From a virus: a DNA stretch of 64,000 nucleotides. The DNA lies in IMG/VR virus record IMGVR_UViG_3300045988_166613, positions 1-64,000 of that record; one strand, given 5' to 3'. This document shows positions 17,226 through 58,054 of this stretch, one piece after another; position 1 is the first letter of the stretch, and every line of letters starts with the position of its first letter. Both the position numbers and the translations under genes were made by a program. Under the pieces are notes generated by a model. It saw only the letters and a program-made list of their open reading frames with translations. It had not been told where the DNA came from and did not search any database.

Positions 17226-17351
17226 TATTCCACCACCTTTCATATATTTTTGAGTATTTTTATAAAAACTCATGTTGTAAAACACTAGGTTTTTCGGCAT
17301 TTTATAACATCAATTTTTGGTTAAAAACACAATTTTAATTAATTTTTTACA

Positions 17352-17382
17352 ATAAAAAAGAACCTAGATTCAATCTAAGCTC
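17352..17382 (-). terminator. rho-independent terminator ending the HEPN moron
   Basis: Minus sense: GAGCTTAGATT/AATCTAGGTTC hairpin followed by TTTTTT. Confidence 0.55.
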
Positions 17383-17407: not shown

Positions 17408-17788
17408 TCAATCTTCATGGGACTCCATTAATATAGCTTCTTCAATCATTAAATTTTGAAATATACAATCATATATATAAGAAATTCCACCTCTTACTTT
17501 CATACTACTATATATATTAATTAATAATGGATCTCTTGTATCAATAACATTAATTCTTGAGATTATTCTTCGTGCATCTATACTTATTCTTTCAAAAAAG
17601 TATCTTGCCAATAATGATATTGCATCATATTCATTTAAAAGATTTAAAAATGGACTTGAAATCATAAAGGTGTAGGTATCACATTCTTTATCTTTAAGAA
17701 ATATAGCCAAATTAACATTTCCATATTGTTCTATGTATTCATTCAAGCATTCTCTAATTTCTGTTACCAAGTTTTCTCTTTTATCCAA
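17408..17788 (-). CDS. hypothetical protein, partner of the HEPN-like gene
   Basis: 126 aa. TTG start 7 nt after AAAGGTGGTG. Overlaps the upstream gene by 25 nt. Confidence 0.55.
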   Translation of the reverse strand: MDKRENLVTEIRECLNEYIEQYGNVNLAIFLKDKECDTYTFMISSPFLNLLNEYDAISLLARYFFERISIDARRIISRINVIDTRDPLLINIYSSMKVRGGISYIYDCIFQNLMIEEAILMESHED

Positions 17789-18189
17789 GTATATACACCA
17801 CCTTTCTCATCTTCTAACGCTTTTATATGATTACTTGCACTCTCTTTACTAAAATAACCGACTGGTTTATATCTTAAATTAACATCCCATTTTGTTAATA
17901 ATGACCAATGTATGAAGAAATCCATATTGTTATTTAGTTCTTCATTTAAAAGGTTGTCAAGCTTGGCTAATTTAATAAGTTTCTGCATATCATGAGTTCT
18001 ATAATTTCTATTGTCATCTGGATATTCCTTTTTCTTCAGTGTATTACATACTGAAGCTTTTAATCCATATTCAACCACATAACCTGAATTTGCAACTACT
18101 TCATCAAATTCTGATATTTCATAAAATTTCTTAATTGATTCAAGCTTTCGTTTTGATTTTTCTTTTAATACTTTTTGTTTTATTGGCAT
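17764..18189 (-). CDS. HEPN-domain-like protein
   Basis: The pattern ...RTHDMQKLIKLAKL...WDVNLRYKP...SKESASNHIKALE resembles the classical HEPN family (THDL..L and ..RYP motifs). ATG 18189 after GGGAGGGA. Confidence 0.45.
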   Translation of the reverse strand: MPIKQKVLKEKSKRKLESIKKFYEISEFDEVVANSGYVVEYGLKASVCNTLKKKEYPDDNRNYRTHDMQKLIKLAKLDNLLNEELNNNMDFFIHWSLLTKWDVNLRYKPVGYFSKESASNHIKALEDEKGGVYTWIKEKTW

Positions 18190-18214
18190 AACAACCATCC
18201 CTCCCAATGGTTAT

Positions 18215-18294: not shown

Positions 18295-21200
18295 TTAATA
18301 ACTATTAAGCTGTTCATTAATCTCATTAATAATTCTTCTATCTCTTTCATCTAGCATAGATTTGATATCCTCTGTTGTACCATTATTTACTGAACCAACA
18401 TTTAAATGTGTGTTGATGTTGATATTAGCTTTTTTACTACCTTGAGGTATTGCCATAAAAGAAGCAACCTTTGGAATAGCTTGTACAACATTATTACCAC
18501 TGTTATATCTAATATTAGAACTTGAAACGCCTAGATTATTATTAATAGATGTTAATTCACCATATAGTTTCTTAGTTAACTCAAGGTTATCTATGTATTC
18601 TTGCATTTTAAGACTACTATCTGCAAATACTTCTCCATTCTTCTTATAATAATCATTTAAAGCATCTCTAAGTTTTATAACGTGACCTTCTATTTCAATA
18701 AATCCTTTTTGAATCATACCTTTTGCTAATTCTGCTATTTTTTCATCAGTATAAGTTTTTTCCATTTCTTTAATTTTCTCATCCTTATGTTTATCTAATT
18801 TGTCCATTTGTTCATCAAAAGCTTTATTACCTTGATCTTTTTGTCTATCTCTAATGAAGTTATTTAATTCTTTTTCAAGGTCATCTTTTTGCTTTAACAA
18901 ATCTTTAAGTTTAGATTGTCCTTCAGATGAAATATCTCTTCTAACAGAATCTATTTGAGCATTAAGTTTATTTAACTTATCTTGCTTTTCTTTAAGGTTT
19001 TTCTCAAAGTTTTCATCGTCATATTTCTTGTTGTACTCATCTCTTTGTTTCTTTAATTCTTCTTTTATTTTAGAAGTTTCATCTTCTAAAGCTTTTTTAC
19101 GTTCTTCTACTTGATTTTTAACAACATTAGTCATTTCTCTTTCGGTATCACCCATTAACTTAACTTGTTTTTCAGAAACTTCTTTAATAGTTTTGGTTAG
19201 TGCATACCATTCATTATTAAGTTTAGGTAATTCTTTAGAAGTTATTTCAAAGTATTTATCAGCTTTTTCTTTTAAATCTTTGAAATTCTTAATTGCTTGT
19301 TCTTTAGCTTTATTGGAATTATCCATAGCGTTAACTTCATCTTCTATTTGTTTCAATCTATCATAGTAGTTAAATATATTACCATTAGAAGCATTAAAGC
19401 CATTGCTTTTTAAGACACCTTCTAAATATCTACCTTCATTTTGTTTAGCAGCTATTAAATTATTTATGGCATCTTTCTTTTGTTTATAAAGATTTATTTC
19501 TTTATTCATATATTGAAGCTTATTAACACCTTGAGCATTTTCTTCAAGAGTTTTGGTAATTTCTAATTCATTGTTAACATCATCTATAGCATCTGTAAGA
19601 GATTTGTAAGCATCGATTTTGTCTTCGATATCTTTGATATCTACATGTTCGCCATTTTTAGAACCTTTACCTCCATGTCCTTTACTACCACTGCCTTTGT
19701 GTCCATTAGCTTCTGGTGAATAGTCAACCTGTACTGGATTATTTGAAGGCAATATTGGATCAATACTATGTTCACTCCAAGCAGTCCATTGTACTCCATT
19801 CCATTTCCATTCTGCTCCTGGTGCTAATGGAACGTGTGGTTTTTGAGGTTTAAGACTATTAGGTAAACCATTTTCATCATAGCCTAATCCAACTGAAGCC
19901 ATAACTTCCTGAAGTTTTTTAGCAAGTTCATAGGCTGATAAAGCCTTAGTTTTACATGCGTTATCAAAATTCTTAACATCGGTTTTGTATGCTCCAGCCA
20001 TATTACCGACCATTTGACTATTAGCTCCTTGTATGGCGTTGGCACCATCTACTGCTGCTTTACTTTTGCTTGTAACTAAATTGGTGTGATTAGTATTATC
20101 AGTTTTGTAGTGTTCGGCTTTGTTGTTTGTTTCTTGTGAAGAAGCTTCGGTTCTAGCGGTTGCTCCATTTTGACCATTAGCTACCTTTGTGTTTTCACTA
20201 TCTGCATGAGCGTTAGTATCATTGGCATAGTTATTCATTTTAGCTTGTGTTTCTTGATTTGATAAACCAACACTATGATTCATAGCTTGTGTTTCAATTG
20301 CTTCTTTACTTGATAAATCACTTATCCCTTGTTGTAATAGATTTTGTGAATTTTGTATTGCTTGTCTATATGTAGCATCACTTTCAGTTCTTAATGTTTT
20401 TTCTAAAGCAATACTATTCTCCATGAATTTATTTTTATCAGCCAAAAGTGATATAACTCTAGTATCCCCAGAATTTAACATAGAACCTACTGTTTTTGCT
20501 GATAACGTTCCCGTTTTTTGGAATTCTGACATGGCTGATTGTACTAAGCCAATATTTCCAGTAAGTTTATTGAATTTTGAACCTAATTTATCTAATTCAT
20601 CTGCTGCTGATGTCGCACTTTCTTTAATTGCATCAAGTGGGTTAGTTAATCCTTCTAATGATGGTTTAGTGTTATCAGCGGTAGTTTGAGTTTGTTGAAG
20701 TGAATTATCAAATTCTCTAATTTTTTCAAAAACATCAACTCCACCAAACTGTGCTTTAATTTCAATATCTGACATTTTAGAAGCTTTCATATCAGCTACA
20801 GCTTGTTTAATACTTGTTATCGTTGCTAATTGTTCTTGAAGTTCTTTATTAACTTCTTGTGTATCAGCTTTTTTAATAGCGCTATTATGCCCAGTGCCCA
20901 TTAAAAGTAGTTTTTGAAACTTACTTAAACCAGTAGAATTAGACGAAGACATTTTTTGATAATTATTCTTATTTTCAAAATATTTATCAAAAACATCCAT
21001 GTGTTTACTGTTTTCTTGTGCTATTTTTTTAGCTGACTCTTCTCTTTCCTCTTTCTTTAATCTTATACTTTCTTCAATAAGAGCATTATTATTAGCAATC
21101 GCATTATTTTGAGAATCTAATCCATTTTTAGTTTGAGGCAATAGAGTTACCATCTCTGATTGAAGTTTATTTAATTCGGATTGCAATTCTATTTTTTCTT

Positions 21201-22272
21201 GTTCATTTTTTGTATTTGCTAACTGATTTTGTAATTCTTTTATTTTTGAGTATTTTTCTTCTGCTTTACTAATTGTTTCATTAGCTTGTTTTGAAGAATT
21301 AAAAAAGTCTGCATTTAATTGTTTTAACTCTTCTCTTGTTGTGTGAAGTTTATCGATAAAAGTCACTAATTTTTCAATTGCAAATGAAACAACCAGTCCA
21401 ACTCCAAACGAAATAGCTGCTTGAGCTGCTGTAGCTGCAACCCTTAATAATCCAAGTTCTACTTTTGTTGCAATTATACTCCCCTTTACTTTCCCCAAAT
21501 TAACTCCATAGGAAAGAGTAGCCTTATTTAGTCCTAACTGCGCATTTTTTGTTAATTTTATTTCTTTGATTAATTCTCTTTGTTCTTTTATCTTATTGTT
21601 TAATCCATATTGTTTACTAATAAATAATTCTTCAATTTTCCCAATGCCAAATAAATTTTTATCTATAGCCATTTTTCTAAATTGCGTATTTAAGGTTGTC
21701 ATACTGGCACTAGCCAATGATACAACGCTTGGAATCGCGCCAAATTCTTTAATTAATCCTCTTAAAGCACTAACTCCGCTATCTATCCCACTTATTATGC
21801 CTTTTAAAAAATCAGTATCAGATAAATCTAAAAATAACCCTTTTATATCTTCTTTTAAACTATTAATTTTAGCTGATAAAGAATTCATATAAGCTTCTTG
21901 TTCTTGTGCAGCACTTCCGAAGCTATTATCTGCTGTTTTTTTTATATTTTCTAAATCCTTTTTTGCATTTAACATCAAAGAGAAGAAAACGTTTGCATTT
22001 TGCTTCCCAGCAAATTTTTCGGCAATCATGGATTTTTGCATATTATTAAGATCATCCCAAACCATAGATAAATCTTTAATAACATCATATGTACTTCTAA
22101 ATTCTTCTTTACCCTCTTTAGTGACTTGGGTTAATTTAACACTTCCATGAGTTGTTTCATCTAACATTTTCTTTAATTTAGGAAATGTTTCTCCGCCTTT
22201 TTCTTTCATACCTCTCATGTTCATTGAGATTGTTTTTAATGCATTACCAACTTTAGCAGGCAGTATATTATC
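18295..22272 (-). CDS. tail tape measure protein, exon 2
   Basis: The frame stays open upstream of the annotated Met back to the intron 3' G (DNILPAKVGNALKTISMNMRG...). Long coiled-coil protein. Confidence 0.7.
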   Translation of the reverse strand, partial: DNILPAKVGNALKTISMNMRGMKEKGGETFPKLKKMLDETTHGSVKLTQVTKEGKEEFRSTYDVIKDLSMVWDDLNNMQKSMIAEKFAGKQNANVFFSLMLNAKKDLENIKKTADNSFGSAAQEQEAYMNSLSAKINSLKEDIKGLFLDLSDTDFLKGIISGIDSGVSALRGLIKEFGAIPSVVSLASASMTTLNTQFRKMAIDKNLFGIGKIEELFISKQYGLNNKIKEQRELIKEIKLTKNAQLGLNKATLSYGVNLGKVKGSIIATKVELGLLRVAATAAQAAISFGVGLVVSFAIEKLVTFIDKLHTTREELKQLNADFFNSSKQANETISKAEEKYSKIKELQNQLANTKNEQEKIELQSELNKLQSEMVTLLPQTKNGLDSQNNAIANNNALIEESIRLKKEEREESAKKIAQENSKHMDVFDKYFENKNNYQKMSSSNSTGLSKFQKLLLMGTGHNSAIKKADTQEVNKELQEQLATITSIKQAVADMKASKMSDIEIKAQFGGVDVFEKIREFDNSLQQTQTTADNTKPSLEGLTNPLDAIKESATSAADELDKLGSKFNKLTGNIGLVQSAMSEFQKTGTLSAKTVGSMLNSGDTRVISLLADKNKFMENSIALEKTLRTESDATYRQAIQNSQNLLQQGISDLSSKEAIETQAMNHSVGLSNQETQAKMNNYANDTNAHADSENTKVANGQNGATARTEASSQETNNKAEHYKTDNTNHTNLVTSKSKAAVDGANAIQGANSQMVGNMAGAYKTDVKNFDNACKTKALSAYELAKKLQEVMASVGLGYDENGLPNSLKPQKPHVPLAPGAEWKWNGVQWTAWSEHSIDPILPSNNPVQVDYSPEANGHKGSGSKGHGGKGSKNGEHVDIKDIEDKIDAYKSLTDAIDDVNNELEITKTLEENAQGVNKLQYMNKEINLYKQKKDAINNLIAAKQNEGRYLEGVLKSNGFNASNGNIFNYYDRLKQIEDEVNAMDNSNKAKEQAIKNFKDLKEKADKYFEITSKELPKLNNEWYALTKTIKEVSEKQVKLMGDTEREMTNVVKNQVEERKKALEDETSKIKEELKKQRDEYNKKYDDENFEKNLKEKQDKLNKLNAQIDSVRRDISSEGQSKLKDLLKQKDDLEKELNNFIRDRQKDQGNKAFDEQMDKLDKHKDEKIKEMEKTYTDEKIAELAKGMIQKGFIEIEGHVIKLRDALNDYYKKNGEVFADSSLKMQEYIDNLELTKKLYGELTSINNNLGVSSSNIRYNSGNNVVQAIPKVASFMAIPQGSKKANININTHLNVGSVNNGTTEDIKSMLDERDRRIINEINEQLNSY

Positions 22273-22628
22273 CTAAAGGCTTTTTATCCTCTAGTTCTAG
22301 GAGTTTCCTCCATTACATCATGTTGATTCATGATTAGCTTAGCATATATTTTCACCCTCGTTTAACGTTAGGCTAATTTAAACAATTAGGATATATCTTT
22401 AATATATCGTGGAGAACACTCTTGGAAAGATTATATTCTGTTATATTACATAACAGTTTCACCTTCTATGCGTTACAGTACAGTAGAATTTTACTTCTAT
22501 TGATTATGTCTCCATAATCTAGTTTTAAAACCTGTTACCTCGGTATTATCATATCTTTGTAGACTTAGATTTCACCGATTTTGCTCTCTTATAATATTAA
22601 GTATTTTCTACTTAACACGACCTTATTT
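22273..22628 (-). mobile_element. ORF-less group I-type intron in the tape measure gene (junctions within about 4 nt)
   Basis: Stops in all frames and GC-richer than the flanks. Ends in G. Shares a 52-nt block (one mismatch) and three further blocks with the TerL intron. Confidence 0.6.
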
Positions 22629-24272
22629 ATATTGATCTTGTATAGCTGAGTTGGCTGTTGTGATTAAAGCAATACTTTGACTTAAATCATTATTGGCTGT
22701 TGAGAGGGCGGATCCCCCTCGCATGATGGCAGAATTTAATCCGCCTACAGAAACGCTAAAATGATTACTGACGTTATTTAATTTATCAATAATATCCATA
22801 CTATCTTTAGCTTGGATATTGTATGCTTTCATTGTTGCAATTAAACCTTTGTTCGCACTCTCAGAATCAATATCACCGACATTAGAAAAAATTATAGAGT
22901 TTTGAGCTAGTTCTTTTGATTCTTGATAGCTATATGACATCTGTGCGAATGCAGCAGTTGCTTCAATTACATTTTTAGTTTGATTTCCCAATGCTTTTGC
23001 CATATCATTTGCTTGATTTTCAAAAGCCTCATATTCTTGAGAGACTTCATTTGTAACTTTTTTCAAGTCTCTCATTGAGTTATCAACTTCTACGATTGTA
23101 CTAAAACCTTCTTTTAAAACTCCAATGGAAGCTCCGATAATTGATCCTCCAATGAAATAATCCTTCATACGTGCAAATATATTACTAAATTGACTTGTTG
23201 TTACAAGTTCACGACTTTGTACTTTTAAATCATTAACATTTTTTTGTATTCTATTTCTCTCTACAGAGCCTAATATTTCATTCTGAGCTATTAACTGTTT
23301 ATATAGATTAATTTGTCTTTCGAGTTCATTGCTAATTCTTACTTGTTCACTACTTTTACCACCACGATTATCAACTCTCACCTTTAAATTCTCCAGTGTT
23401 CTTAATTGTGATGTTAAGAATCTAGCACTTCTATTAATTTCTGCACTTCTACTAGATTCTTTCTTTATACAAGCGTCTAACTTAACTAATTCTTGAGACA
23501 GTAAATTCTTTTCCTCTTGAGTTAACCTATTACTCTTAGCTTTAGCTTCATTAATTTTATTTTGAATGTTTTGTACAGATTCTAAATGTCCTGTATTATT
23601 ATAATTACTATTTTTAAGATGTTGAGTTTCACTTAATGCTTTTATTTTATTAAGTCTATTCTCTAATTGAATTAAAAATTGTTCTTGGCTTAAATTAGCC
23701 GACTCTAACTTTGATTTATTATTAACTATCTTTTTATCTACTAAATCAAATACACGAACTAACTCGCCTTCAACCTCTTTTACAGTCCATCCATATTTTT
23801 CTACAGCTTGTCTACCTTCATCATATTGATAAGTTAAAGTAGTGTTCTTAACATTACCTTTCTTATCCATTACAGTAGATAACTTTGCCATCTTACCATT
23901 TAATAATTGTATCTCATTTTCAAGACTTTTACTTTTCTTTAGTATATCTTCAAAGTCTCCAGAAACGCTTTTTAAATCACTCTTAACTTCAAGATTTATC
24001 TTTTCACCTTTGAGTGCTGAGTTAATTTGTTTTTGAATATCTTGTAAAGCTCCATTATTACCTAAACTAATTTTACTTATGTTTAAATCAATATTTTTGC
24101 TAAGTTGATTTATTTGTTTTTGTATTTGATTTGTAGCTTTATCAATATCTTTTAAAGATACTTTTTCTAATTCAACCCCTAAATTTTTACTTAAACTTTT
24201 AATATCTTTTTCAAGTTGTTGTAATACTTTATCTTTATTTAATTTCCCACCGAATGATAGATTTAAAGACAT
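22629..24272 (-). CDS. tail tape measure protein, exon 1
   Basis: About 548 codons of coiled coil ending ...NSAIQDQY(K). GGAAAGGAGG RBS. Confidence 0.7.
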
Positions 24273-24301
24273 ATAATTCCTCCTTTCCCCGTTTTATTAC
24301 A

Positions 24302-24336
24302 TAAAAAAAGAACCTAGATATTAAAATCTAAGTTCT
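24302..24336 (-). terminator. strong rho-independent terminator immediately upstream of the TMP start
   Basis: Minus sense: GAACTTAGAT-TTTAAT-ATCTAGGTTC followed by TTTTTTT, ending about 30 nt before the TMP ATG. Confidence 0.65.
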
Positions 24337-24492
24337 TTATCATTATTTTCATATTTAATTATTATAATTTTGTTACTGCAACTTCTATCTCTTTCTCATT
24401 ATTACATAAAAAGCATTTGTCTTATCTTCCATTTAGCTACACTAAACTAGATATTAGTATGTTATGTTAATAAAATAATATTTTTTATATAA

Positions 24493-24526
24493 TAAAAAAG
24501 AACCTAGCTATACATTTACTAAGTTC
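24493..24526 (-). terminator. rho-independent terminator
   Basis: Minus sense: GAACTTAG...CTAGGTTC followed by TTTTTT. Confidence 0.6.
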
Positions 24527-24563
24527 GCAAATTCAATATATTATTTGATTATAAACGTTAAAC

Positions 24564-24585
24564 AGCCTAGCAATTAAGCTAGGCT
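24564..24585 (-). terminator. hairpin downstream of the MazF-like gene (weak T-tract)
   Basis: AGCCTAGC-AATTAA-GCTAGGCT. Confidence 0.35.
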
Positions 24586-24670
24586 ACTAAACTTGTCTTT
24601 GTTGATCCTAATTAAAGGACGATTGCTTTTACGCAACATTGTTTTTAACTTATGAGTTAATTATAATCTA

Positions 24671-25381
24671 TTAATTATTATTTGTCAACATTTTTATATA
24701 TAATTTTAAAAATAAATCTTCGACTTTTTTCATATTATCATCATCTAATACAAATTTTGATAATGGTTCTTTTGAATTTTTAGGCTCGTATATTCTCATC
24801 TTGCTTATGGTTCTAATTTGCGAAACTATAGCAACCGAACCTTTGTTTAAATTTTTTAATTCATTAAGTAAAAAAGCCTTATTTTTTTCTAAATTGGAAA
24901 ACTCTAAAGAAGTTGTATCAGTACATTCTAAATCACGATCAATTTTTTGAAGTTCTTTTTTGGTATAATCTATTTTATCTGTTAATAAAGCTTCACCTAA
25001 ATAAACTTCAAATCTTTTATTAATAGTTTCTTCATTTTCATAATCTTTTAATGAACGTATAGGAATTATTGTCACAACATTAGAATTTTTATTATTCTTG
25101 TTATCCATTACTAACCCATAATGTAATCCACCTTGTTCAGAACTAATATTATACCCTAAATGCACTTTTACTATATTTCCTTTTTTATACCTTATTAGTT
25201 CTTTAGGATTAAATTCTTGTTCTTTTGACAAAAAACGCTCATTCCAATCATTGAGCCAATAAGTTAATATTTTTTGTTGTTTGACACTTAAATTTTCAAC
25301 AATATTATATTCTAATTCATCTAATACTTGTCTCAAAGTTTGCCTTATTTCTTCATCAGTGTTTAAATGTTTTATTCTCAA
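24671..25381 (-). CDS. long MazF/PemK-like (SH3-fold toxin-like) protein
   Basis: KKGNIVKVHLGYNISSEQGGLHYGLVMDN...VVTIIPIRS and ...AIVSQIRTISKMRI match PemK/MazF signature segments. It has about 65 aa of N-terminal extension and a central insertion. TTG start after GGAGGA. Confidence 0.5.
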   Translation of the reverse strand: MRIKHLNTDEEIRQTLRQVLDELEYNIVENLSVKQQKILTYWLNDWNERFLSKEQEFNPKELIRYKKGNIVKVHLGYNISSEQGGLHYGLVMDNKNNKNSNVVTIIPIRSLKDYENEETINKRFEVYLGEALLTDKIDYTKKELQKIDRDLECTDTTSLEFSNLEKNKAFLLNELKNLNKGSVAIVSQIRTISKMRIYEPKNSKEPLSKFVLDDDNMKKVEDLFLKLYIKMLTNNN

Positions 25382-25413
25382 TAGTATATTCCTCCCATTT
25401 ATATTTTAAGAAA

Positions 25414-25442
25414 ATTATACCACTTTTGAATAAAGTTAACAA
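25414..25442 (-). promoter_or_regulatory. sigma-A-type promoter TTGTTA-N17-TATAAT with TGG extension
   Basis: Minus sense: TTGTTAACTTTATTCAAAAGTGGTATAAT. Nearly identical to the promoter at 30230-30258. Confidence 0.55.
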
Positions 25443-25592
25443 ACAATAAATATTTTTAATATTAATTTTATATTTTTAGTTATTAATGGTAAAATATAAC
25501 TGCTTATTTAATCAGTTTCTCTAATTTATATTGACTCCTTTTAATTATAGCCCTTGTCCCTTCCTTCTATTTTTTTTCATGATAACAACTCC

Positions 25593-26147
25593 TTAATCTA
25601 ACCATATTATTTCTTCGTTTTTATCATCATATATTTCTTCTAGCCCTTGCTTATCTTCACTCCAACTGTCATATCTAACAACGTTATATCCCTTGTATTT
25701 TCTTACTAACTTATATTTATTGGGAAATATTTCTTTACATGTCTCACATTCATTATCCATTAATTCACTCCAATAACCTGTATTATATTCTATAACGCCT
25801 TTATTAACCATTTCTAATACTAAATCATCATCAAAATAATCACTATCATACCATTCCATATTTTGAGTATATTCATAAATAGCTTTGGTTAAATTATGTT
25901 TCTTACAAGCATTTTTTAAGGCTTCATAAAACAACATTGTGCTTTCAATTTGACCATAAAAAGTCATATAATCCTCTTTACTATAATCTCTTTCTTCTTC
26001 GTTATACTTTTTTCTTCCTTCTCTATCTAATCTTATAATCTCGTCTCTGAAATCTGTTAGAAATTCCTTTGTTAATAATTTCTTCTTTCTATTAGGTAGT
26101 CCAAAATAATTTGAAATACCCCATCCTATATTACCACTTCTACCCAT
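25593..26147 (-). CDS. hypothetical protein
   Basis: ORF 25593-26165. ATG 26147 after GAGAGGAA is preferred. Tightly coupled to the upstream ORF. Confidence 0.55.
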   Translation of the reverse strand: MGRSGNIGWGISNYFGLPNRKKKLLTKEFLTDFRDEIIRLDREGRKKYNEEERDYSKEDYMTFYGQIESTMLFYEALKNACKKHNLTKAIYEYTQNMEWYDSDYFDDDLVLEMVNKGVIEYNTGYWSELMDNECETCKEIFPNKYKLVRKYKGYNVVRYDSWSEDKQGLEEIYDDKNEEIIWLD

Positions 26148-26161
26148 GATTATTATTCCTC

Positions 26162-26686
26162 TCAAATCTCTTTTAAAATCTTATCAACTCTTTGTTTAAT
26201 TTCATCTTTAGATGTTCCATCTTCAATAATTTTTCTAAACATCAATTCTATTACACTCCAATCTCGTTTGTCTGGAATGATTTCTTTTCCTTCTTTTTTA
26301 TCAGTTGCATTAAATAATTTGTTTAACGCAACTTTGCTTTCTAGCCTTTTAATTAGCATATCATAATCATCATATTTACTTTCATTTGATTGTTTACTTT
26401 GTCTTTCCACTATTTCAAAAAATCTTTTGGTAGCTTCTTCATCTAATTCAATAGGTCTAGTAAACACACTATCGTATTCATCATAATCTCTATTCCACTC
26501 GTTATCTTCTCGCCATTCATCATCTTTTGATATAACGGCATAGCCTTGCTCATTATATTTAGTGTTTTCTTTAGCTATTCTTATAGCTTTTTCAATTTTA
26601 GTATTCAATAATTCCTTGCATTTTTCTAAAGTTTCAACTGTTTCAATTTTATCTTTCTTCTTAGAAAACCCTTTACTATCAGTCAT
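26162..26686 (-). CDS. hypothetical acidic protein
   Basis: 174-aa ORF with AAGGAG RBS. Confidence 0.55.
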   Translation of the reverse strand: MTDSKGFSKKKDKIETVETLEKCKELLNTKIEKAIRIAKENTKYNEQGYAVISKDDEWREDNEWNRDYDEYDSVFTRPIELDEEATKRFFEIVERQSKQSNESKYDDYDMLIKRLESKVALNKLFNATDKKEGKEIIPDKRDWSVIELMFRKIIEDGTSKDEIKQRVDKILKEI

Positions 26687-26700
26687 GATTTATCAACTCC

Positions 26701-26859
26701 TTAACAAACAACTTCTACAGCTTGTCTTAATATATAATCTTTACTCTTATTAATCATTAGTATTCCATTGTAGAGATTTTCACACTCTAAAACTTCACCC
26801 TCACTATAAATTCTTGAATTGCTTCTATTGCGATATGTTTTTATTAATTTGACTCTCAT
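26701..26859 (-). CDS. small hypothetical protein (52 aa, below the ORF-track cutoff)
   Basis: ATG 26859 after GGGAGAG. My translation is MRVKLIKTYRNRSNSRIYSEGEVLECENLYNGILMINKSKDYILRQAVEVVC. The stop lies just before the RBS of the next gene. Confidence 0.4.
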   Translation of the reverse strand: MRVKLIKTYRNRSNSRIYSEGEVLECENLYNGILMINKSKDYILRQAVEVVC

Positions 26860-26883
26860 TTTTTTAATTCTCTCCCATTTTAT

Positions 26884-28890
26884 TTATTTATTTTCTAATT
26901 TTTTAAGTTTCTCATCAATATTATATTTAATACGTTCTTCCGGTGTTAAATCTTCTACATATTTAAAAGTAAAACCTTTATGGTGTTTTTGTTTACCATT
27001 GCAAACATTAGATATACAAGCTGGTTGCAAAAATACATTAAATATTCTCTTACTATCTCGGCTTAAAGCATTACATCCTTCAAAAATTTGTCCGTTCTCT
27101 ATTGATAGTATTTTTTTCATTTTTGCTTTGCTACTTTTATCCTTTCCTATTTTTTTACTAATAGAAATATCGTAGTTACACCAACCAAGCCTTGTTCCTT
27201 GTTTTAAATACTTCACAATTGTATTTCTATTAATTTTTGTAATATTTTTTATTTCAAGAACATCTTTGGTTCGTGTATTATACATATAACAAATTTCTCT
27301 CGCTATATTTTTTATAGAACCTTTGTGACATGTTGTCCAATTTACATTACTTAAATCAAATAATTCAGCTAATTCTGAGTTTAATATACTGTTCTGAATC
27401 CATTCTAAATTTGATTCTCTGCAATCAAGCTCTATATAATGCTTTATATCATTTTTTAATGCTACTTCTTTTTTATACTTATCGTTAGCTTGTTCTTGTT
27501 TTAAATCTCTTCCTCCCGTAGACGAAAAATTAGATATATCTGAATAATGTTGTTTACCATTAACTTCTATTATCATATTAAACTTAGGGATATAAAAATC
27601 GTATCTTTTTGGTTTTATCCAACTTGGGGAATATTCTTTTTTGTATTTAATATTTAATTGTAATAATAGATTTATTATAAATTTCTCTGGATATGATAAA
27701 CCATCAGAGCAATATTTACAAACAAATCCTCTTCTTGTTAGATCACATATTTTTCTTTTTCTAATTTTATTGCAATCTGGGCATATTGTTTCTACCCTCT
27801 TGTTACTTCCCTGAGAATGCTTATAAGCATCTTCTTTATTAACAAAATACTTAACTAAATATGGATGTGTTGTTGCTATATCGTTTATACCAACTCTAAC
27901 TCTTTTACCAAAACAAATTGGACAATTACCATTTCTTAATATAACAGATGGCGTAGTTTCAAATTCGCAAAAATTACAATTTGAACTATTATGTCTTAAT
28001 AGAATTTTTTTATCAGCTCCTTCATATTTACTAAGTACATTAAATTCATTCGGATATAAAGTTTGTAATTCTGTTTCAAAAGTTTCTTGTTTTTTTATAA
28101 ATTTATTTTTAAGGAATAATTTGTTACAATGAGGACAAGAAGCTTTCTTTAATATTGTTGAAACTCCTATATAAAAAGATTTGCCACACTTATTATGTCT
28201 AATTAGCACCTTAGTTTTAGCATTAATATATTCCCCTAAAATTTCATATTCATTACCATATTTCTCTTTAATTTCATTAACAAATTCTTCGTGTGTTTTT
28301 TGTTGGTTGCCTGCACATAATGGACACCCAGCACCATGTAAAAGTGAAGCAGGTTTAACACTCCATTCATAGCCACATTTATTATGCCTTAGTTTAATTT
28401 TAATATCACCTTTTATATATGGTTCTAATGGTGTATATTCTTCACTATATTTTTCTTTTAATTCTCTTAAAAATTGCTCATTATTTTTAGTTATAGAATT
28501 AATGGCTTTTATTTTGTTACAAGATGGACATCCCCTTTTTATAAGTTGATTATAATATATATAAAATTCATTATTACATTTTTTATGTTTTATTTTTATT
28601 TTGCTTTTGCAACTTTCATATTCACTCAAAACAATATATTCATTTCCATATTTATCATAAAGTTCTTTTTTAATGTCTTTAGTCGTCTTTTTAATGTTCC
28701 CTGCACACTTCGGACACCCATTGTTTAACAAGCTATATGGAATCACACTCCATTCATATCCACAATCATTATGTTTAACTAGTATTTTAGTTTTATTGTT
28801 AATATATTTTTCTAACGGTATATAAACTCCATCCCCATGTACTTCGTTTAATTGTTTAATAAATTCCTCATGTGTCTTCTTTTTACCCAT
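26884..28890 (-). CDS. Zn-ribbon-repeat nuclease with PD-(D/E)XK/Vsr-like core and C-terminal DNA-binding module (homing-endonuclease-like)
   Basis: At least five repeats of the type C.YEW...P..LL.G.GCP.C, then RYDFYIPKFNMIIEVNGKQHY, then IENGQIFEG..ALSRD... Start ATG 28890 (MGKKKTHEEF) matches the paralogue at 62980. Confidence 0.65.
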   Translation of the reverse strand: MGKKKTHEEFIKQLNEVHGDGVYIPLEKYINNKTKILVKHNDCGYEWSVIPYSLLNNGCPKCAGNIKKTTKDIKKELYDKYGNEYIVLSEYESCKSKIKIKHKKCNNEFYIYYNQLIKRGCPSCNKIKAINSITKNNEQFLRELKEKYSEEYTPLEPYIKGDIKIKLRHNKCGYEWSVKPASLLHGAGCPLCAGNQQKTHEEFVNEIKEKYGNEYEILGEYINAKTKVLIRHNKCGKSFYIGVSTILKKASCPHCNKLFLKNKFIKKQETFETELQTLYPNEFNVLSKYEGADKKILLRHNSSNCNFCEFETTPSVILRNGNCPICFGKRVRVGINDIATTHPYLVKYFVNKEDAYKHSQGSNKRVETICPDCNKIRKRKICDLTRRGFVCKYCSDGLSYPEKFIINLLLQLNIKYKKEYSPSWIKPKRYDFYIPKFNMIIEVNGKQHYSDISNFSSTGGRDLKQEQANDKYKKEVALKNDIKHYIELDCRESNLEWIQNSILNSELAELFDLSNVNWTTCHKGSIKNIAREICYMYNTRTKDVLEIKNITKINRNTIVKYLKQGTRLGWCNYDISISKKIGKDKSSKAKMKKILSIENGQIFEGCNALSRDSKRIFNVFLQPACISNVCNGKQKHHKGFTFKYVEDLTPEERIKYNIDEKLKKLENK

Positions 28891-29186
28891 TACATTCTCA
28901 CCATCCACTCATTTATAAGCTCATCCTCAAACTCATCTCTAACCTTATGTCTTATCATAATTCCATCATTAACTTTTGCTATTGTTATGTATTCTTTCTC
29001 CGCTTCAGCATCTTCCATAATCCCTGACAGTAAACATCTAAAATCATATCCATTCATATGTTGTTTCAGATAAACTGATTCATTATCATAAACAAATCTC
29101 TCTAGGTTAAGTTCTTTATTTTTAGTCTTACTGAAAAATTCCTCTGGATCTATAAATATTTCATCGTAAATTTTAAAATTAATCAT
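28890..29186 (-). CDS. hypothetical protein
   Basis: 98 aa with GAGGTGA RBS. Its stop overlaps the next start (TAATG). Confidence 0.55.
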   Translation of the reverse strand: MINFKIYDEIFIDPEEFFSKTKNKELNLERFVYDNESVYLKQHMNGYDFRCLLSGIMEDAEAEKEYITIAKVNDGIMIRHKVRDEFEDELINEWMVRM

Positions 29187-29348
29187 ATGTACTCACCTCA
29201 TATTATGTATTTTTTTTATTTTAATTTGTTTCTATGGTTTAATTATAAATCCGATTTTCGTATAAGTCAATACGTTTTTCGGATTAAAATTCAAAAAAAC
29301 GTATATTTTTTTATTAAAATAAGCTATAATACAATTGAGGTGATATTA

Positions 29349-29591
29349 ATGAGAATGAAATTGCATATGTTATTAGCTGAACATAGAATGACTCAAAAGG
29401 AATTATCTAAAGCAACAGGAATTCGTCAAGCTACAATAAGTGCTTATGCTAGTAACAACTATAAACATATAGTTAGAGAACATATTGATATTTTATGCGA
29501 CTATTTTAATTGCGATTTAACTGATTTAATAGAGTTAGATAGGTCAGAAAGAAAACCAGTATTTCATAATAAGAAAGAAATTAATAAATAA
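29349..29591 (+). CDS. XRE/Cro-CI-family HTH transcriptional regulator
   Basis: MTQKELSKATGIRQATISAY HTH segment. ATG 29349 after GAGGTGA. Paralogue of 62594-62806. Confidence 0.75.
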   Translation: MRMKLHMLLAEHRMTQKELSKATGIRQATISAYASNNYKHIVREHIDILCDYFNCDLTDLIELDRSERKPVFHNKKEINK

Positions 29592-29598
29592 TTACATT

Positions 29599-29625
29599 AA
29601 AAAAGAAGCTAGTAAATAGCTTCTT
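29599..29625. terminator. bidirectional terminator hairpin between convergent genes
   Basis: GAAGCTA-GTAAA-TAGCTTC, with an A-run on one side and TT on the other. Confidence 0.5.
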
Positions 29626-29638
29626 AATACATATATTA

Positions 29639-30205
29639 TTATTCAGTTACAACATTTTTTACTATATTTATGTTTTTATACTCTTTCATTAATCTATGAA
29701 GTTCTTGAACAATTTTTTCGTTTTCACCAATACCTCTTTCAAACACAATATTGACCACTTCTCCTTCATAAATGGCTCTTATATAGACATATTCTTTATT
29801 TAATTCTTTTTCTTTTCCTTTCATACCAAGACCGAAAACTCCAAAACAAGCTACTTTCATTAAAGAAGCTTTCTCTATTAATTGAGACTCTGTCTGAATT
29901 CTATAATCTTTTATATCTTTAAATAATATCTCTTTTTCTACTTTATAATCTATTTTAAATATAATCCTATCTTTAAATAACATTAATTTAACATCTTCTT
30001 TTATTCCATATTCTCTAAATCCAGAATATAGTTTAATCCAATAACTATTCACTAAGTTTAAACCTTGTTTTTTATAATTTTCTTTTTCCTCTTTTTTTCT
30101 TTTAGCAATATCTTTATCTGTACTTTTACTTATCAAAAAACACATAATCAATATGATACCAATAACTATAGCAAAATCTATTAAAGTTTCCATAATCAAT
30201 TCCAT
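29639..30205 (-). CDS. membrane-anchored protein (N-terminal TM helix), possible exclusion protein
   Basis: The N-terminus LIDFAIVIGIILIMCFLI is hydrophobic and is followed by a soluble domain. Confidence 0.5.
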   Translation of the reverse strand: MELIMETLIDFAIVIGIILIMCFLISKSTDKDIAKRKKEEKENYKKQGLNLVNSYWIKLYSGFREYGIKEDVKLMLFKDRIIFKIDYKVEKEILFKDIKDYRIQTESQLIEKASLMKVACFGVFGLGMKGKEKELNKEYVYIRAIYEGEVVNIVFERGIGENEKIVQELHRLMKEYKNINIVKNVVTE

Positions 30206-30229
30206 CTCCTTATCTTATTTATTAAGATA

Positions 30230-30258
30230 ATTATACCACTTTTACACAATGTTAACAA
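30230..30258 (-). promoter_or_regulatory. sigma-A-type promoter TTGTTA-N17-TATAAT with TGG extension
   Basis: Minus sense: TTGTTAACATTGTGTAAAAGTGGTATAAT. Confidence 0.55.
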
Positions 30259-30269
30259 TTAATTCTAAA

Positions 30270-30304
30270 TAAAAAAGAACCTAGTTTATTAATTACTAAG
30301 TTCT
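30270..30304 (-). terminator. rho-independent terminator overlapping the GNAT gene stop
   Basis: Minus sense: GAACTTAG...CTAGGTTC followed by TTTTTT. Confidence 0.6.
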
Positions 30305-30846
30305 TTTTTATATAAGTCTTCACATTCATTTAAAGTGACATATAATGCTTTACATCCTTCTTGAGAATTCTCCTCTTTCAAGAAACTATATCCTTTTGGA
30401 TATTCATGAAATTTTAATCCAGCCTTATTTTTCTTCATATAAAAGTCTACGGAGTCTGGAACTGAAAACAAATGGATATATTTCACACCAACATGTTCTT
30501 CCTTTAAATGAATTGCAACTTTAACAGCCATCGCTAACATTTTTGATCCCAAACCAAGTTTTTCATAATTAATATCTACACCTAATCTTGCTATTTCTAA
30601 TGCTGGCAAAACTTTATGTAAATTATCATCTTTAACTTGGATTCCATTACATTTCAAAGTGTAATATGCAACTATTTTATTGTCTTTTTCATCTATTAAT
30701 ATATAAGTATTTCCTTCACCAGAACAATCATAATTATGAGCATCATTCTTCAAAAAATTTTCTATACTCTCATCTGAGCACTCAAAATCTCCTACTAATC
30801 TTAAATGCTCTAATGATTGATTTAGCTTAGTTAAAACTAATTCCAT
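30289..30846 (-). CDS. GNAT-family N-acetyltransferase (TacT/AtaT-like toxin candidate)
   Basis: VAYYTLKCNGI...LPALEIARLGVDINYEKLGLGSKMLAMAV matches the GNAT acetyl-CoA motif and the layout of GNAT toxins. Confidence 0.65.
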   Translation of the reverse strand: MELVLTKLNQSLEHLRLVGDFECSDESIENFLKNDAHNYDCSGEGNTYILIDEKDNKIVAYYTLKCNGIQVKDDNLHKVLPALEIARLGVDINYEKLGLGSKMLAMAVKVAIHLKEEHVGVKYIHLFSVPDSVDFYMKKNKAGLKFHEYPKGYSFLKEENSQEGCKALYVTLNECEDLYKKELSN

Positions 30847-30847
30847 A

Positions 30848-31087
30848 TTACTTTATTTTTATATCCTTTACTAAATCCAAGCATTTTTTAATAGTATCTT
30901 TACTTATTTTTGCTTTTTCTGATTCTTTTAAAAATTCTTTTGCCACTCTTCCTTCCAATGTTTGTAATATTCCCATTGATACTCCCATACTTACTTCCTC
31001 CTTGTCACCACTACACTTACTTCCTTTTTTTTCATTACATTTAATCTTTGCTTTACCATTCCATTTCTTTATAATCATAACCATCAC
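30848..31087 (-). CDS. small protein upstream of the GNAT gene (antitoxin candidate); start uncertain
   Basis: Its stop is 1 nt before the GNAT ATG. An internal ATG at 30988 has a strong AAGGAGG RBS and would give a 46-aa product. Confidence 0.45.
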   Translation of the reverse strand: MMVMIIKKWNGKAKIKCNEKKGSKCSGDKEEVSMGVSMGILQTLEGRVAKEFLKESEKAKISKDTIKKCLDLVKDIKIK

Positions 31088-31156
31088 CCTATTACCATAT
31101 ATTTACTTTTATGATAACATGTAAAGCTTGTCCATTTAAAGAAATTTCATAGGTCA

Positions 31157-31196
31157 AATTTTGTTAATATCTTCTTCATTTAACAAAATTATAACA
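31157..31196 (-). promoter_or_regulatory. extended -10 (TGTTATAAT) overlapping an 11-bp perfect inverted repeat (operator candidate)
   Basis: AATTTTGTTAA (31157-31167) and TTAACAAAATT (31180-31190). The -10 element lies at 31188-31196 in minus sense. Confidence 0.45.
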
Positions 31197-31282
31197 TATA
31201 ATTATGAATAATTTATTAACAATTGTATTTTTTCAAAAAAATATGTCGCAAAAAAATGTTTAAGTGCATATAATATTATGGC

Positions 31283-31732
31283 TTAATCTATATCGTAACC
31301 CATATTTTTTAATTTTCTTTTATACATATCTTCTAATATTCCACTTTCCAATTCTTCTTTAGTAAATTCAAACACTGGTCTTGCATTAGGTTGTCTATTC
31401 CATGTATAATCTTCACCATATTCAATTATTTCATCTAGTCTTTCACCTTTAGCATCTGCATATGGCTCATTTTCATTACCTTTTGCTATATTTTCAACAG
31501 TAATTACTCCGCTTCCAACAGGGGTAACAACTATATTTCTTCTATCTCCAAAACCACCATTTTCTCCTCTTCTGTCATAATAATGAGGTTGAAATTCTCC
31601 TTCGTAAACCATTTCTTTGATATTCTTATGTAACAAATCTCCTACATCTTCACCAACAGACAAAGAAATTTCTTCTAAATCACCATTAAACTTATCAATA
31701 AATTCTTCTATATTTTCTATATCAATATCCAT
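31283..31732 (-). CDS. hypothetical structural-module protein
   Basis: 149-aa acidic ORF, the last gene of the conserved block before the accessory island. Confidence 0.5.
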   Translation of the reverse strand: MDIDIENIEEFIDKFNGDLEEISLSVGEDVGDLLHKNIKEMVYEGEFQPHYYDRRGENGGFGDRRNIVVTPVGSGVITVENIAKGNENEPYADAKGERLDEIIEYGEDYTWNRQPNARPVFEFTKEELESGILEDMYKRKLKNMGYDID

Positions 31733-56497: not shown

Positions 56498-57778
56498 CTA
56501 AAATAAACTACATCCTTGACTTTTAAACTCTTTGATTTTTTCTTTTAAAACCTTTGGTTTGACATTTAAATCATTAGCAAGACATTTAATACATTTAAAT
56601 TCTTCTATGTATCTTCCATAATATTTCATACTTAAAGCTATATCATTTTTCTTTAATTTCTTATTACAACATATACATCTTTTGTCAAAATATTTCTTAG
56701 CTAATTCAATGTCTAAATTATATGTATCTGAAAATTCCTTGATTACTTCCTCTGTTGCTTCATCTCTTACACCTGTTCCATTCCAATTCATATGATATTC
56801 TTTTAATGTACAGTTTAATATTGGTGCTTTCTTATTTTCTATAAAGTCTTTCTCTAGTATATCATGCCATCTATTAAAAGCTTTTGGATACCAATATTTA
56901 TCTAATACCCATGTAGACTTAGTATAATAGGGACAACTCACGGAGCATCCAACTCTACTATATCCTTTCTTATACTTAGGATTTATAGAAACTTTTTTCC
57001 ATATGATATATAACCATACATCTAATTCACTCCATTTTCTAATTGGTAATATAGCATTCCATTCTCTTTCACCCCATTTATTGTTTTTCCATTCATCTCC
57101 ATAACTAGACCTTGTATTACTTTCTTGATTTCTCATTCCCATAAAGAATAAATATTTACTGTCTTCATCAAGATAATCAATCATAGCCCCTTCTTTGAAT
57201 ATATCACAACACGCTCTAGCTAATCTATTACCAACGAAATTATTTCTTTCTCTCCATTGATAAAACCCTTCTTTGGGATTAATTATTGTTAAATTTTCTT
57301 CTTTCTTTATATGCAAATATGTATCAGCACAGTCTAATGTTGTATTATTAAATATCTGTTCTGCATTCTTATATACTTTTCTATTTAAATAAGAAGTAAC
57401 ACTACTGTCTTTTCCTCCAGATGTTAAATTAGCAATATTTCTATTTGGATATTTTGCTATAGAATCTTTTATTAAAGTTAAACTTTCGTTTTCTAATTCT
57501 AAAAGTCTATTTAAATTTCTATTAACTGTATCTTCCCATGATTCAATTTCAAATGATTTATTGCTATATTCTTTAAACTCTATATTTAAATCATTATCTA
57601 CGTTAAGTCTTAATATTTTATGTATATTTCCTTCTTTGTCAAAAGCTTTTATTATTGATCTATCTAACCAATAATATCCTTCCTTTAATTTAACCTGTAA
57701 TCCTTTATCTTCTAAAAATTTTATAAATTCTTTAAATACTAAATTCAATTCTTTCACCTTCACAATGTTTCTACACAT
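56498..57778 (-). CDS. PP-loop ATPase / PAPS-reductase-family protein (IbrA/YbdN/DndC-like)
   Basis: LTSGGKDSS PP-loop, RNQESNTR, PIRKWSELDVWLYI, GYSRVGCSVSCP, and a C-terminal Cys-rich tail. The start is uncertain: ATG 57778 lacks an SD, and TTG 57748 follows GAAGGTGA. Confidence 0.7.
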   Translation of the reverse strand: MCRNIVKVKELNLVFKEFIKFLEDKGLQVKLKEGYYWLDRSIIKAFDKEGNIHKILRLNVDNDLNIEFKEYSNKSFEIESWEDTVNRNLNRLLELENESLTLIKDSIAKYPNRNIANLTSGGKDSSVTSYLNRKVYKNAEQIFNNTTLDCADTYLHIKKEENLTIINPKEGFYQWRERNNFVGNRLARACCDIFKEGAMIDYLDEDSKYLFFMGMRNQESNTRSSYGDEWKNNKWGEREWNAILPIRKWSELDVWLYIIWKKVSINPKYKKGYSRVGCSVSCPYYTKSTWVLDKYWYPKAFNRWHDILEKDFIENKKAPILNCTLKEYHMNWNGTGVRDEATEEVIKEFSDTYNLDIELAKKYFDKRCICCNKKLKKNDIALSMKYYGRYIEEFKCIKCLANDLNVKPKVLKEKIKEFKSQGCSLF

Positions 57779-58028: not shown

Positions 58029-58054
58029 TCATTTATTTAATTTATTTTAACATT

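Follow-up and report, generated by a model that had tools for sequence, protein, structure and literature searches.

We analyzed a 64,000-nucleotide (nt) stretch of viral DNA (IMG/VR record IMGVR_UViG_3300045988_166613, positions 1-64,000; hereafter the window) that carries an accessory island at 24273-31282. Features of the window lie on its minus strand unless stated otherwise. As delimited by open reading frame (ORF) calls and family scans, the island sits among the tail genes, between a YomN-family gene and the gene for the tape measure protein (TMP). Our results suggest, with a probability that we put at about 0.7, that this island fills a lineage-wide cargo slot in which autonomous cassettes are swapped at linkers. 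They also point to one of these cassettes – a lengthened MazF-like protein (MazF-long) followed by a predicted gene for a small RNA (sRNA) – as a candidate type III-like toxin-RNA module whose toxin fold and gene order would both be new, a reading to which we give slightly less than even odds.

A cargo slot filled differently in related phages

On one side the island abuts the gene for a 149-amino acid (aa) YomN-family protein (31283-31732; Pfam label), with genes for a tube-like YomU_Tube protein and a 199-aa protein as further flanking genes, and on the other side the TMP gene starts at 24272. The closest IMG/VR viral contig (L002) is collinear with the window at about 88% nt identity from 35141 to 31043 and again from 24316. 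Inside the island its homology is limited to two linkers – 30305-30190 and a 44-nt promoter copy (25442-25399). The L002 slot measures 1.8 kb and encodes a 66-aa ORF, a 204-aa GNAT protein (26% identical), and an unrelated 231-aa membrane protein; it lacks the XRE switch, the endonuclease gene, and a 5.3-kb block that are present in the window.

Two Clostridium perfringens contigs provide further versions of the slot. In L102 (150-kb contig) it holds about 6.6 kb with the layout of the window and 88-95% identity, including a divergent and shorter endonuclease (519 aa). In L103 (122-kb contig) it holds 9.5 kb, with a small ORF and a canonical 153-aa PemK – a MazEF-like pair – instead of the GNAT pair. 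L103 has the XRE gene and a 100-aa gene, followed by a 284-aa gene in the endonuclease position that we read, from its sequence, as BRO/antirepressor-like. This gene and the window endonuclease gene have the same first six codons (MDGENI/V), which suggests a swap just within the region of overlap with the 98-aa gene of the window. The flanking structural genes of all three relatives are about 88-95% identical to those of the window at the nt level, and between these conserved flanks the island genes are absent or replaced in L002, L102, and L103.

The slot is also filled in more distant phages. In SPbeta, yomN and the TMP gene yomI are separated by yomM, yomL (on the opposite strand), yomK, and yomJ, about 4 kb in all; the phiCD211 insert of about 4.4 kb encodes a regulator, a repressor, an anti-repressor, and a SHOCT protein; and in a Staphylococcus SPbeta-like phage the sole annotated slot gene is the integrase-like YomM. 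A preliminary description of the window had proposed non-structural, variable cargo made of autonomous host-type units. The differing gene sets of close relatives favor that proposal and are the opposite of what would be seen if the same structural genes recurred everywhere. The same description had considered the placement and the large size of the island unusual – neither view holds, given the filled slots of SPbeta and phiCD211 and the longer insert of L103.

Comparison with SPbeta yomM-yomJ and phiCD211 genes 20017-20021 shows the same slot, accessory or regulatory genes, one opposite-strand gene, and annotated stem-loops, though we saw no shared gene content in a comparison that did not set the proteins directly against each other. 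SPbeta and its Staphylococcus relative keep the integrase-like YomM, whereas the window island has no gene of that size. The island also resembles the morons of lambdoid and HK97-type phages, reportedly described by Juhala and Hendrix in 2000 as autonomous promoter-gene-terminator units in late operons. Like morons, its cassettes combine a host-type promoter and a terminator between late genes, are absent from close relatives, and are presumably expressed in the prophage. Unlike morons, they form about six units in a row over 7 kb, share a repeated linker family, and occupy a slot that is filled supergroup-wide, in a late operon that is probably read by a YonO-like polymerase rather than by an antiterminated host enzyme. 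SPbeta, phiCD211, and the C. perfringens elements, a supergroup of large phages of temperate or plasmid-like habit, would thus share an open cargo slot in mid tail operon, bounded by reusable terminator/promoter linkers – a predictable place for toxin-antitoxin (TA), defence, and regulatory genes in clostridial pathogens and a possible neutral site for engineering.

Predicted host-type transcription units and their linkers

The sequence matches predict about six host-type units: the GNAT pair, a membrane protein gene, the XRE gene, a five-gene unit, MazF-long, and the sRNA. At this level of evidence, units have a promoter upstream and a terminator downstream of their own. An extended -10 element (TGTTATAAT, 31196-31188) was read by eye. 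Terminator T1 (30271-30309), with arms GAACTTAG and CTAGGTTC and a U-tract, makes up a conserved linker together with the promoter that follows, TTGTTA-17-TGGTATAAT (30230-30258; motif scan), which would serve the membrane protein gene. T2 (29599-29625), at the left edge of the 5.3-kb segment, is common to the convergent membrane protein and XRE genes. A divergent control region (29242-29320) contains the promoter TTGACT-17-TATAAT (29270-29242, 11/12 matches) together with repeated ATACG-N-CGGAT-type sites, a direct repeat (29248-29263 and 29269-29284), and an inverted arm (29295-29320). The MazF-long gene has a second TTGTTA-17-TGGTATAAT promoter (25414-25442), and a consensus sigma-70 promoter, TTGACA-17-TATAAT (24660-24688, 12/12), overlaps its stop codon. 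A terminator hairpin (24587-24560) closes the candidate sRNA. The linker terminator recurs twice more within 24303-24526 (at 24526-24494 and 24338-24303); a 155-nt spacer separates these copies, and the second ends 30 nt before the TMP start.

We found five gene-strand terminator hairpins, three of which share the T1 arms (0 expected by chance), and relatives of the linker terminator at 29585-29612 and, beyond the TMP gene, at 17340-17370. The duplicated promoter is 82% identical over 49 nt in its 25399-25447 copy. The 116-nt linker at 30305-30190, consisting of terminator and promoter, is 91.5% identical to that of L002 though the flanking genes differ. A junction repeat, TTCTTTTTTaATGTAAT, occurs at both edges of the 5.3-kb segment that has no counterpart in L002, and the same terminator and promoter adjoin the MazF-long cassette in unrelated C. 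perfringens prophages. Cassettes would thus be swapped by recombination at repeated terminator/promoter linkers – the linkers being observed, the mechanism proposed.

Most of the inventory in the preliminary description was recovered. All listed genes are present as ORFs of the stated character according to ORF calls and family scans. Sequence matches return four well-placed promoters and five hairpins where at least four host-type promoters and five or more terminators had been announced. The toxin-like label of the GNAT gene and the MazF-like label of the long gene agree with their closest relatives of known structure (see below). One claim failed: the genes running from 26859 to 25593 had been set apart as a three-gene operon, but the 52-aa gene starts just 24 nt after the endonuclease stop, with no promoter or terminator seen in between, so these genes are better read as the distal end of a five-gene unit beginning at 29186.

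The presence of terminators immediately upstream of TMP – 30 nt before its start in the window, directly before its ribosome-binding site in L002 – implies that late transcription must ignore such signals. We identified a 924-aa ORF (52842-55616) that matches the Pfam RdRP family (4.9e-11), which we take to be the signature of YonO, the single-chain RNA polymerase of SPbeta. The YonO-like protein is probably the late-gene polymerase of the window phage. YonO transcribes the SPbeta late genes as one operon, pauses little, and is highly processive (PMC5467207). If a YonO-like enzyme reads the late operon of the window, host-type terminators would not be polar and host-type units could be tolerated within it.

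MazF-long and the predicted RNA downstream of it

MazF-long (24671-25381) is a 236-aa protein that matches the PemK/MazF family (2.6e-09; PemK_toxin is its sole Pfam family) and phrog_1412 (5e-37). Its AlphaFold2 (AF2) model (predicted local distance difference test score, pLDDT, 87) predicts a MazF/PemK core to which an N-terminal helical hairpin and an inserted helical hairpin are added. The top Foldseek matches are the Staphylococcus aureus and Bacillus subtilis MazF proteins (E 1e-05, target-normalised TM-score about 0.7). The family is large – a cut-off of E<=1e-30 admits at least 352 clusters (50% identity) – and its extra N-terminal helical domain (residues 9-56) is invariant. The GSEQGG motif and the C-terminal SQIRTISK motif of MazF are retained. 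The members examined come from Clostridium and Streptococcus prophages and related elements, Streptococcus satellite phages, and IMG/VR contigs (several of them human-gut). We found no conserved protein partner: 50 upstream neighbors fall into 30 unrelated clusters and 46 downstream neighbors into 28, and no MazE/PemI gene is adjacent in any MazF-long context examined.

The 400 nt of apparently non-coding DNA that follow MazF-long (24273-24670) hold a predicted sRNA gene that travels with it. The candidate sRNA (24556-24653) is about 98 nt long, or about 160 nt if read through to 24494. Its elements are, in order, AAACA, a hairpin (24646-24620), a second hairpin (24620-24604), AAGACA, and the terminator hairpin, and the predicted fold is closed by GUUAAA/UUUAAC pairing. 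The folding energy is -27.3 kcal/mol, compared with -14.9 +/- 2.9 for shuffled sequences (z -4.25). A cassette corresponding to 25423-24475, with 195 nt of non-coding DNA included, recurs at 90.8% identity in HK97-like C. perfringens prophages, where it lies between an integrase-like gene and the small terminase gene. A 72%-identical cassette in small integrative elements keeps the promoter and the hairpins and shows a different loop and a G-U to G-C change; we read the terminator stem of this version as partly compensatory.

The pairing of MazF-long with a small structured RNA recurs in about 90 other prophage loci. Our survey covered 80 IMG/VR loci, with proteins 33-41% identical, and Streptococcus pyogenes phage 315.1, giving 50 distinct downstream sequences. 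All 50 carry a predicted sigma-70 promoter, a GC-rich-hairpin RNA (roughly 90-130 nt in complete loci), and a terminator, and this promoter-RNA-terminator unit spans 25-91% protein identity and four genomic contexts. Promoters with at least 10/12 matches occur at 98% of the 50 MazF-long ends but at only 4.3% of 255 control ORF ends from the same loci, when positions -35 to +75 of the stop are scored.

The surveyed RNAs often consist of two near-identical hairpin units, each preceded by AAACA or AGACA (RACA), and these RACA motifs form near-invariant alignment columns. The stems covary: 81% of cells in the two hairpins of a 25-sequence alignment are paired, compared with 26-43% when the partners are slid, and double-sided changes number 33, compared with 12.6 in shuffles (0/500 shuffles as high).

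Two other functions for the downstream DNA were considered and rejected. A 21-aa ORF in the sRNA is not conserved – its frame and length change in L017 – and does not support an encoded peptide. Type I-like antisense control was dismissed because the RNAs show no excess complementarity to the translation start of the toxin gene (z -1.4 to +1.4).

Several observations concern sequences in or near these loci. A TTTTACG/TTTAACG motif follows the sRNA terminator in the window (24547-24559) and in L017, L024, L027, L047, L056, and L097; the window copy pairs with the GUUAAA at the 5' end of the RNA, and transcripts may therefore run on a few bases beyond the U-tract. On the strand opposite the sRNA (24549-24631, plus strand), there is a weak Rfam match to the S. 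pyogenes sRNA Spy1786666 (25 bits, gathering score 64; E 0.014 in a 441-nt search). As MazF-long homologues occur in S. pyogenes prophages, the match may represent a mis-stranded relative or chance. In L057 we noted two type II hammerhead matches (127-194 and 887-958), of which one exceeds the gathering score and the other falls just short of it, and in L087 a FuFi-1 RNA (970-1188); all are on IMG/VR prophage contigs, a few kb away from MazF-long homologues.

A possible toxin-RNA module

The proposal of a toxin-RNA module starts from two observations, the invariant gene-promoter-RNA-terminator order and the lack of a conserved protein partner. In the module that we envisage, the MazF-fold RNase would be kept inactive by binding an abundant, unstable hairpin RNA transcribed from its own consensus promoter immediately downstream of the MazF-long gene. 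Once the element is no longer transcribed, whether after phage takeover or because the plasmid-prophage is lost, the RNA would decay and the toxin would be freed. The RACA motifs could be the toxin's own processing sites. We tentatively regard the pair as a previously undescribed RNA-antitoxin class of TA or abortive-infection systems, defined by a MazF-fold toxin with two additions, a downstream RNA, and RACA before each hairpin; in a literature search of incomplete coverage, we came across no report that pairs a MazF-fold toxin with an RNA.

Described type III families encode the RNA upstream of the toxin gene, under one promoter, and separate the two by a terminator. These systems include ToxIN, CptIN, and TenpIN (PMC3401426), and a comparable pair is AbiF/RCd22 of a C. 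difficile prophage, whose RCd22 RNA has two motif copies (PMC12373285). All combine a toxin with a small structured RNA containing repeated motifs and lack a protein antitoxin, as the MazF-long pair appears to; the location on prophages or mobile elements and, presumably, an RNA in excess are further likenesses, and the two motif copies of RCd22 are matched in most MazF-long RNAs. Differences lie in the toxin, which has a MazF/PemK fold with two helical additions and gives no Pfam or PADLOC match to ToxN/AbiQ, CptN, TenpN, or Abi_2, and in the RNA, which has two to three hairpins instead of an identical-repeat array.

Relative to MazEF/PemIK systems, MazF-long keeps the fold and both motifs, though it is twice as long, lacks an adjacent MazE/PemI, and has a histidine at the position of the catalytic arginine. 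The contrast can be drawn within one island, since the first slot of L103 contains a canonical short PemK with a small ORF upstream. An Rfam 'pemK RNA motif' is named in 10.1101/2024.10.12.618037. By name it is tied to PemK-family genes, as the MazF-long RNA would be. It is a hairpin motif near pemK genes; if it was part of the Rfam library that we searched, it is not the window RNA, for which no family matched. If our reading is correct, RNA-antitoxin systems would gain a fourth protein fold and a new gene order with MazF-long and its sRNA, and the pairing would explain the restraint of hundreds of apparently orphan 'PemK/MazF family toxins' in Firmicute prophages.

Evidence against the proposals and alternative explanations

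Both proposals face contrary evidence. Regarding the autonomous cargo units, promoter-like sites are at chance level in this 26% G+C DNA (95 compared with 91.4 expected from shuffles), and near-perfect promoters in the window number 4 compared with 2.45 expected; the weight of the promoter evidence therefore comes from where the sites lie and from their conservation in relatives, not from counts. That YonO reads through intrinsic terminators goes beyond PMC5467207, which shows only low pausing. The family of the 184-aa island protein also occurs in the replication region of ~200-kb C. botulinum elements, so not every island gene is dispensable cargo by nature. The ORF upstream of the GNAT gene shows no RHH/DUF1778 signature in family scans. 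PADLOC-DB 2.0 detects no known defence system among the island proteins, and without such a system-level match the defence cargo of the preliminary description is unproven.

Regarding the toxin-RNA module, the catalytic arginine of MazF is replaced by an invariant histidine (GGLHY), so RNase activity of MazF-long is not assured. Its RNA lies downstream with its own promoter at all 50 distinct loci, in the order opposite to that of described type III systems. The window RNA has three unlike hairpins, not two like units, and structural support from its own clade amounts to one divergent comparison. A covariance model built from 25 IMG/VR RNAs did not find the RNAs of the window, L011, L017, or L101 at E<=10; the RNA 'family' is thus a shared architecture and not a demonstrated homologous, alignable family. 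Rfam has no family matching the gene strand of the window RNA (E<=1), L027 (E<=10), 12 loci searched (E<=0.01), or phage 315.1 (E<=1).

Other accounts of the island as a whole fare worse than that of a cargo slot. Its position inside the tail module and the orientation of its genes would suit a role in tail assembly, as chaperones or tape-measure accessory factors transcribed only with the late operon. This is scarcely credible, as no island gene has a structural family match (Pfam, PHROG), gene sets differ between phages with about 90% identical tail genes, the units have their own promoters and terminators, one gene runs the other way, and the MazF-long cassette is also found in unrelated prophages, away from tail modules; we rejected a structural role on this variability and the family scans. 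Alternatively, the 5.3 kb between 29600 and 24310 could be a mobile block brought in by the homing endonuclease, with an insertion in the TMP gene (described below) protecting the window genome from cleavage – a case of collaborative homing. The endonuclease, the block, and the TMP insert are jointly absent from L002, a short repeat marks both edges of the block, and no stretch differs more between the window and L102 than the endonuclease gene. We nevertheless consider such homing improbable: L102 combines endonuclease and block with an uninterrupted TMP, L103 has much of the block without the endonuclease, and the endonuclease gene is 4.3 kb from the insert, with no target site known.

The function of the toxin-like modules leaves more room for disagreement. 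It is possible, though we lean against it, that the GNAT pair and MazF-long/sRNA are addiction modules that stabilise a plasmid-prophage and that the XRE switch controls lysogeny, with no part in defence. The absence of a PADLOC defence system fits this account, as do the occurrence of 98-aa protein homologues on many 142-158 kb C. perfringens contigs, one of them labelled a plasmid, and the plasmidial state described for related phiCD211-type phages (PMC5786514). Further points in its favor are the regulator, repressor, and anti-repressor in the phiCD211 slot and the BRO/Ant-like gene after the 98-aa gene counterpart in L103. Since persistence as a plasmid is probable, an addiction role is as plausible as defence for the toxin modules. 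However, MazF-long/sRNA cassettes are mostly found in integrated prophages beside integrases, where segregational loss is no issue; L002 lacks the XRE switch, which is therefore not essential for this phage type; and a TA system can act in both addiction and abortive infection. A further account, which we find unlikely, has MazF-long controlling itself, its N-terminal two-helix hairpin being a fused antitoxin and the RNA an unrelated sRNA or a promoter-terminator insulator. The invariant extra N-terminal helical domain and the inserted helical hairpin would suit a built-in antitoxin, PHROGs labels the family 'antitoxin mazE-like', and the RNA lineages are so different that one model misses others. 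The toxin-RNA module is favored over self-control by the presence of the promoter-RNA-terminator unit with the gene at 50/50 distinct loci, by stems that covary, and by the conserved A-rich RACA before each hairpin, which a passive insulator would not need.

Other genes of the island

The first module combines a small ORF (30848-31087; 76-79 aa), a candidate antitoxin that adjoins or overlaps the GNAT gene, with a toxin-like GNAT acetyltransferase of about 185 aa (30289-30846; Pfam Acetyltransf_1, phrog_1758 3e-30). The small ORF, taken as 79 aa, has no Pfam, PHROG, or NCBIfam match, and its C-terminal 27 residues resemble those of the analogous 66-aa ORF in L002. The best sequence matches of the GNAT protein in the PDB are 7f37, 5fvj, 7ak7/8, and 6g96 (E 3e-08 to 8e-04), which we take to be TacT/AtaT-type toxins. 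The two genes may thus form a type II TA pair whose GNAT protein resembles the tRNA-acetylating TacT/AtaT. Size, closest solved relatives, and a small overlapping ORF upstream are shared with TacAT/AtaRT, whereas the upstream ORF lacks a DUF1778/RHH match and the GNAT protein is only distantly related – membership in this family is half supported.

The second module is a slot for a membrane protein. In the window this is a 188-aa protein (29639-30205) with an N-terminal hydrophobic, putatively membrane-spanning segment, read from the translation; it has no family match in Pfam or PHROG scans and shares 36% identity with the 202-aa protein that fills this slot in L103. The corresponding proteins elsewhere are the 231-aa protein of L002, with hydrophobic segments, and the SHOCT-domain protein of phiCD211. 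The slot would always be filled by some membrane protein and may serve superinfection exclusion.

In the third module, a predicted repressor of the XRE/Cro-C1 type (29349-29591, plus strand; HTH_26 5e-16) faces the five-gene unit, which encodes the 98-aa protein, the endonuclease, and the 52-, 174-, and 184-aa proteins. With its promoter flanked by repeated operator-like sites, this unit looks like a repressed switch. The XRE gene keeps its place and orientation in L102 and L103. The first gene of the facing unit encodes the 98-aa protein (28890-29186), which has no family and is about 90% identical, by eye, to the 100-aa protein of L103. The XRE/98-aa pair recurs in both relatives while the gene after it is exchanged, so the pair looks like a regulatory switch and not passive cargo.

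The second gene of the unit (26884-28908; 668-674 aa) is a predicted free-standing homing endonuclease gene (phrog_559 'HNH endonuclease', 3e-88). Its product has treble-clef DUF4379 zinc fingers and an I-HmuI NUMOD-like C-terminus (phrog_559, phrog_681, phrog_9084); such nuclease and DNA-binding modules, and its patchy presence among relatives, are typical of these genes. Three diverged DNA repeats within it (28184-28239, 28373-28428, and 28760-28815) correspond to its zinc-finger modules. A 1.4-kb metagenome contig (L006, positions 1-227) joins a host ScpB-like N-terminus to the endonuclease 3' end at 1.7x coverage; we discarded it as a new context for the unknown genes, as it is most likely a chimera.

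The distal part of the unit (25593-26859) consists of a 52-aa gene (26701-26859; ORF call), a 174-aa gene (26162-26686; ORF call), and a 184-aa gene (25593-26147/26165; a 190-aa ORF, 184 aa from the ATG), none with a family. Homologues of the 174- and 184-aa genes in L103 sit within a longer co-directional array. The AF2 model of the 184-aa protein (pLDDT 89) has no fold match in PDB or BFVD. A 188-aa neighbor in the C. botulinum elements was rejected as a homologue of the 174-aa protein. An 11-codon ORF (MKKNRRKGQGL, 25545-25580) with a good ribosome-binding site directly follows the 184-aa gene, before the MazF-long promoter. PADLOC gave weak matches only ('HEase' for the endonuclease, HTH for the XRE protein) and nothing for the GNAT protein, the membrane protein, MazF-long, or the unknown genes; PADLOC and NCBIfam added nothing for the 174- and 184-aa and other family-less proteins. 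Extra genes in the L103 slot encode a KwaA-like membrane protein (10578-11156), with no obvious KwaB partner, and a PBECR4 nuclease-like protein (11684-12418).

An insertion in the TMP gene and a second insert

Adjacent to the island but not part of it, an intron-like insertion of 374 nt (22261-22634) splits TMP into 549 and 1309 aa. TMP is unsplit in L002, L102, and L103 and reads AIQD|PAKVGN across the junction; the insertion is therefore precise, and its removal restores the frame. The boundary, which is ambiguous by 1 nt, fits the group I rule, with the 5' exon ending in U and the insert in G (CAAGAU|C...ACUG|CCUGCU). A search for the RF00028 core did not recognise it in the insert (11.7 bits, E 2.3, 37 model positions only). 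In phiCD211, a homologous unannotated insert occupies the same site, directly upstream of and outside the annotated Intron_gpI; given this position just 5' of an annotated group I intron, TMP there probably has two introns in tandem.

Between TMP and a DUF6558 tail protein, we noted genes for a 147-aa HEPN protein and an overlapping 126-aa ORF (17408-18207). This insert is bounded by the linker terminator at 17340-17370, is absent from L002, L102, and L103, and marks a second cargo slot that possibly holds a HEPN-type toxin pair.

The phage and its host

Sequence comparisons place the window phage, an element of ~150 kb, among the large siphophages of the SPbeta/phiCD211/c-st group. G+C content is 26%, and the minus strand carries almost all genes. 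Part of a 151,783-bp metagenome contig (ENA ERZ27234096 k119_110478) is 100% identical to the window, and precomputed Pfam labels on this contig identify a 271-aa protein as YomU_Tube and the 149-aa protein as YomN. TMP matches phages of the phiCD211, SPbeta, and c-st types at 24-29% identity. A megablast search with 12 kb of the window against 50,697 phage genomes returned no match, and relatives were reached by way of proteins; a Luteolibacter match from a contig scan with the YomN-like protein was spurious.

The host is almost certainly C. perfringens, judging from homologues 92-96% identical to the island MazF-like, 184-aa, and 98-aa proteins that NCBI names as C. perfringens. The 98-aa protein has 63 homologue clusters, and all given source names are C. 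perfringens. Given also the contig sizes and the plasmid label noted above, phages of the window type probably persist as plasmids in this species.

Elsewhere in the window, Rfam calls a tRNA at 49729-49795 (53.6 bits, above the gathering score), while ARAGORN reports no tRNA. The early region (48219-51502 and 56498-59860) encodes DUF2828/DUF7788/VWA, metallophosphoesterase-like, PAPS-reductase-domain, and UvrD-type helicase proteins.

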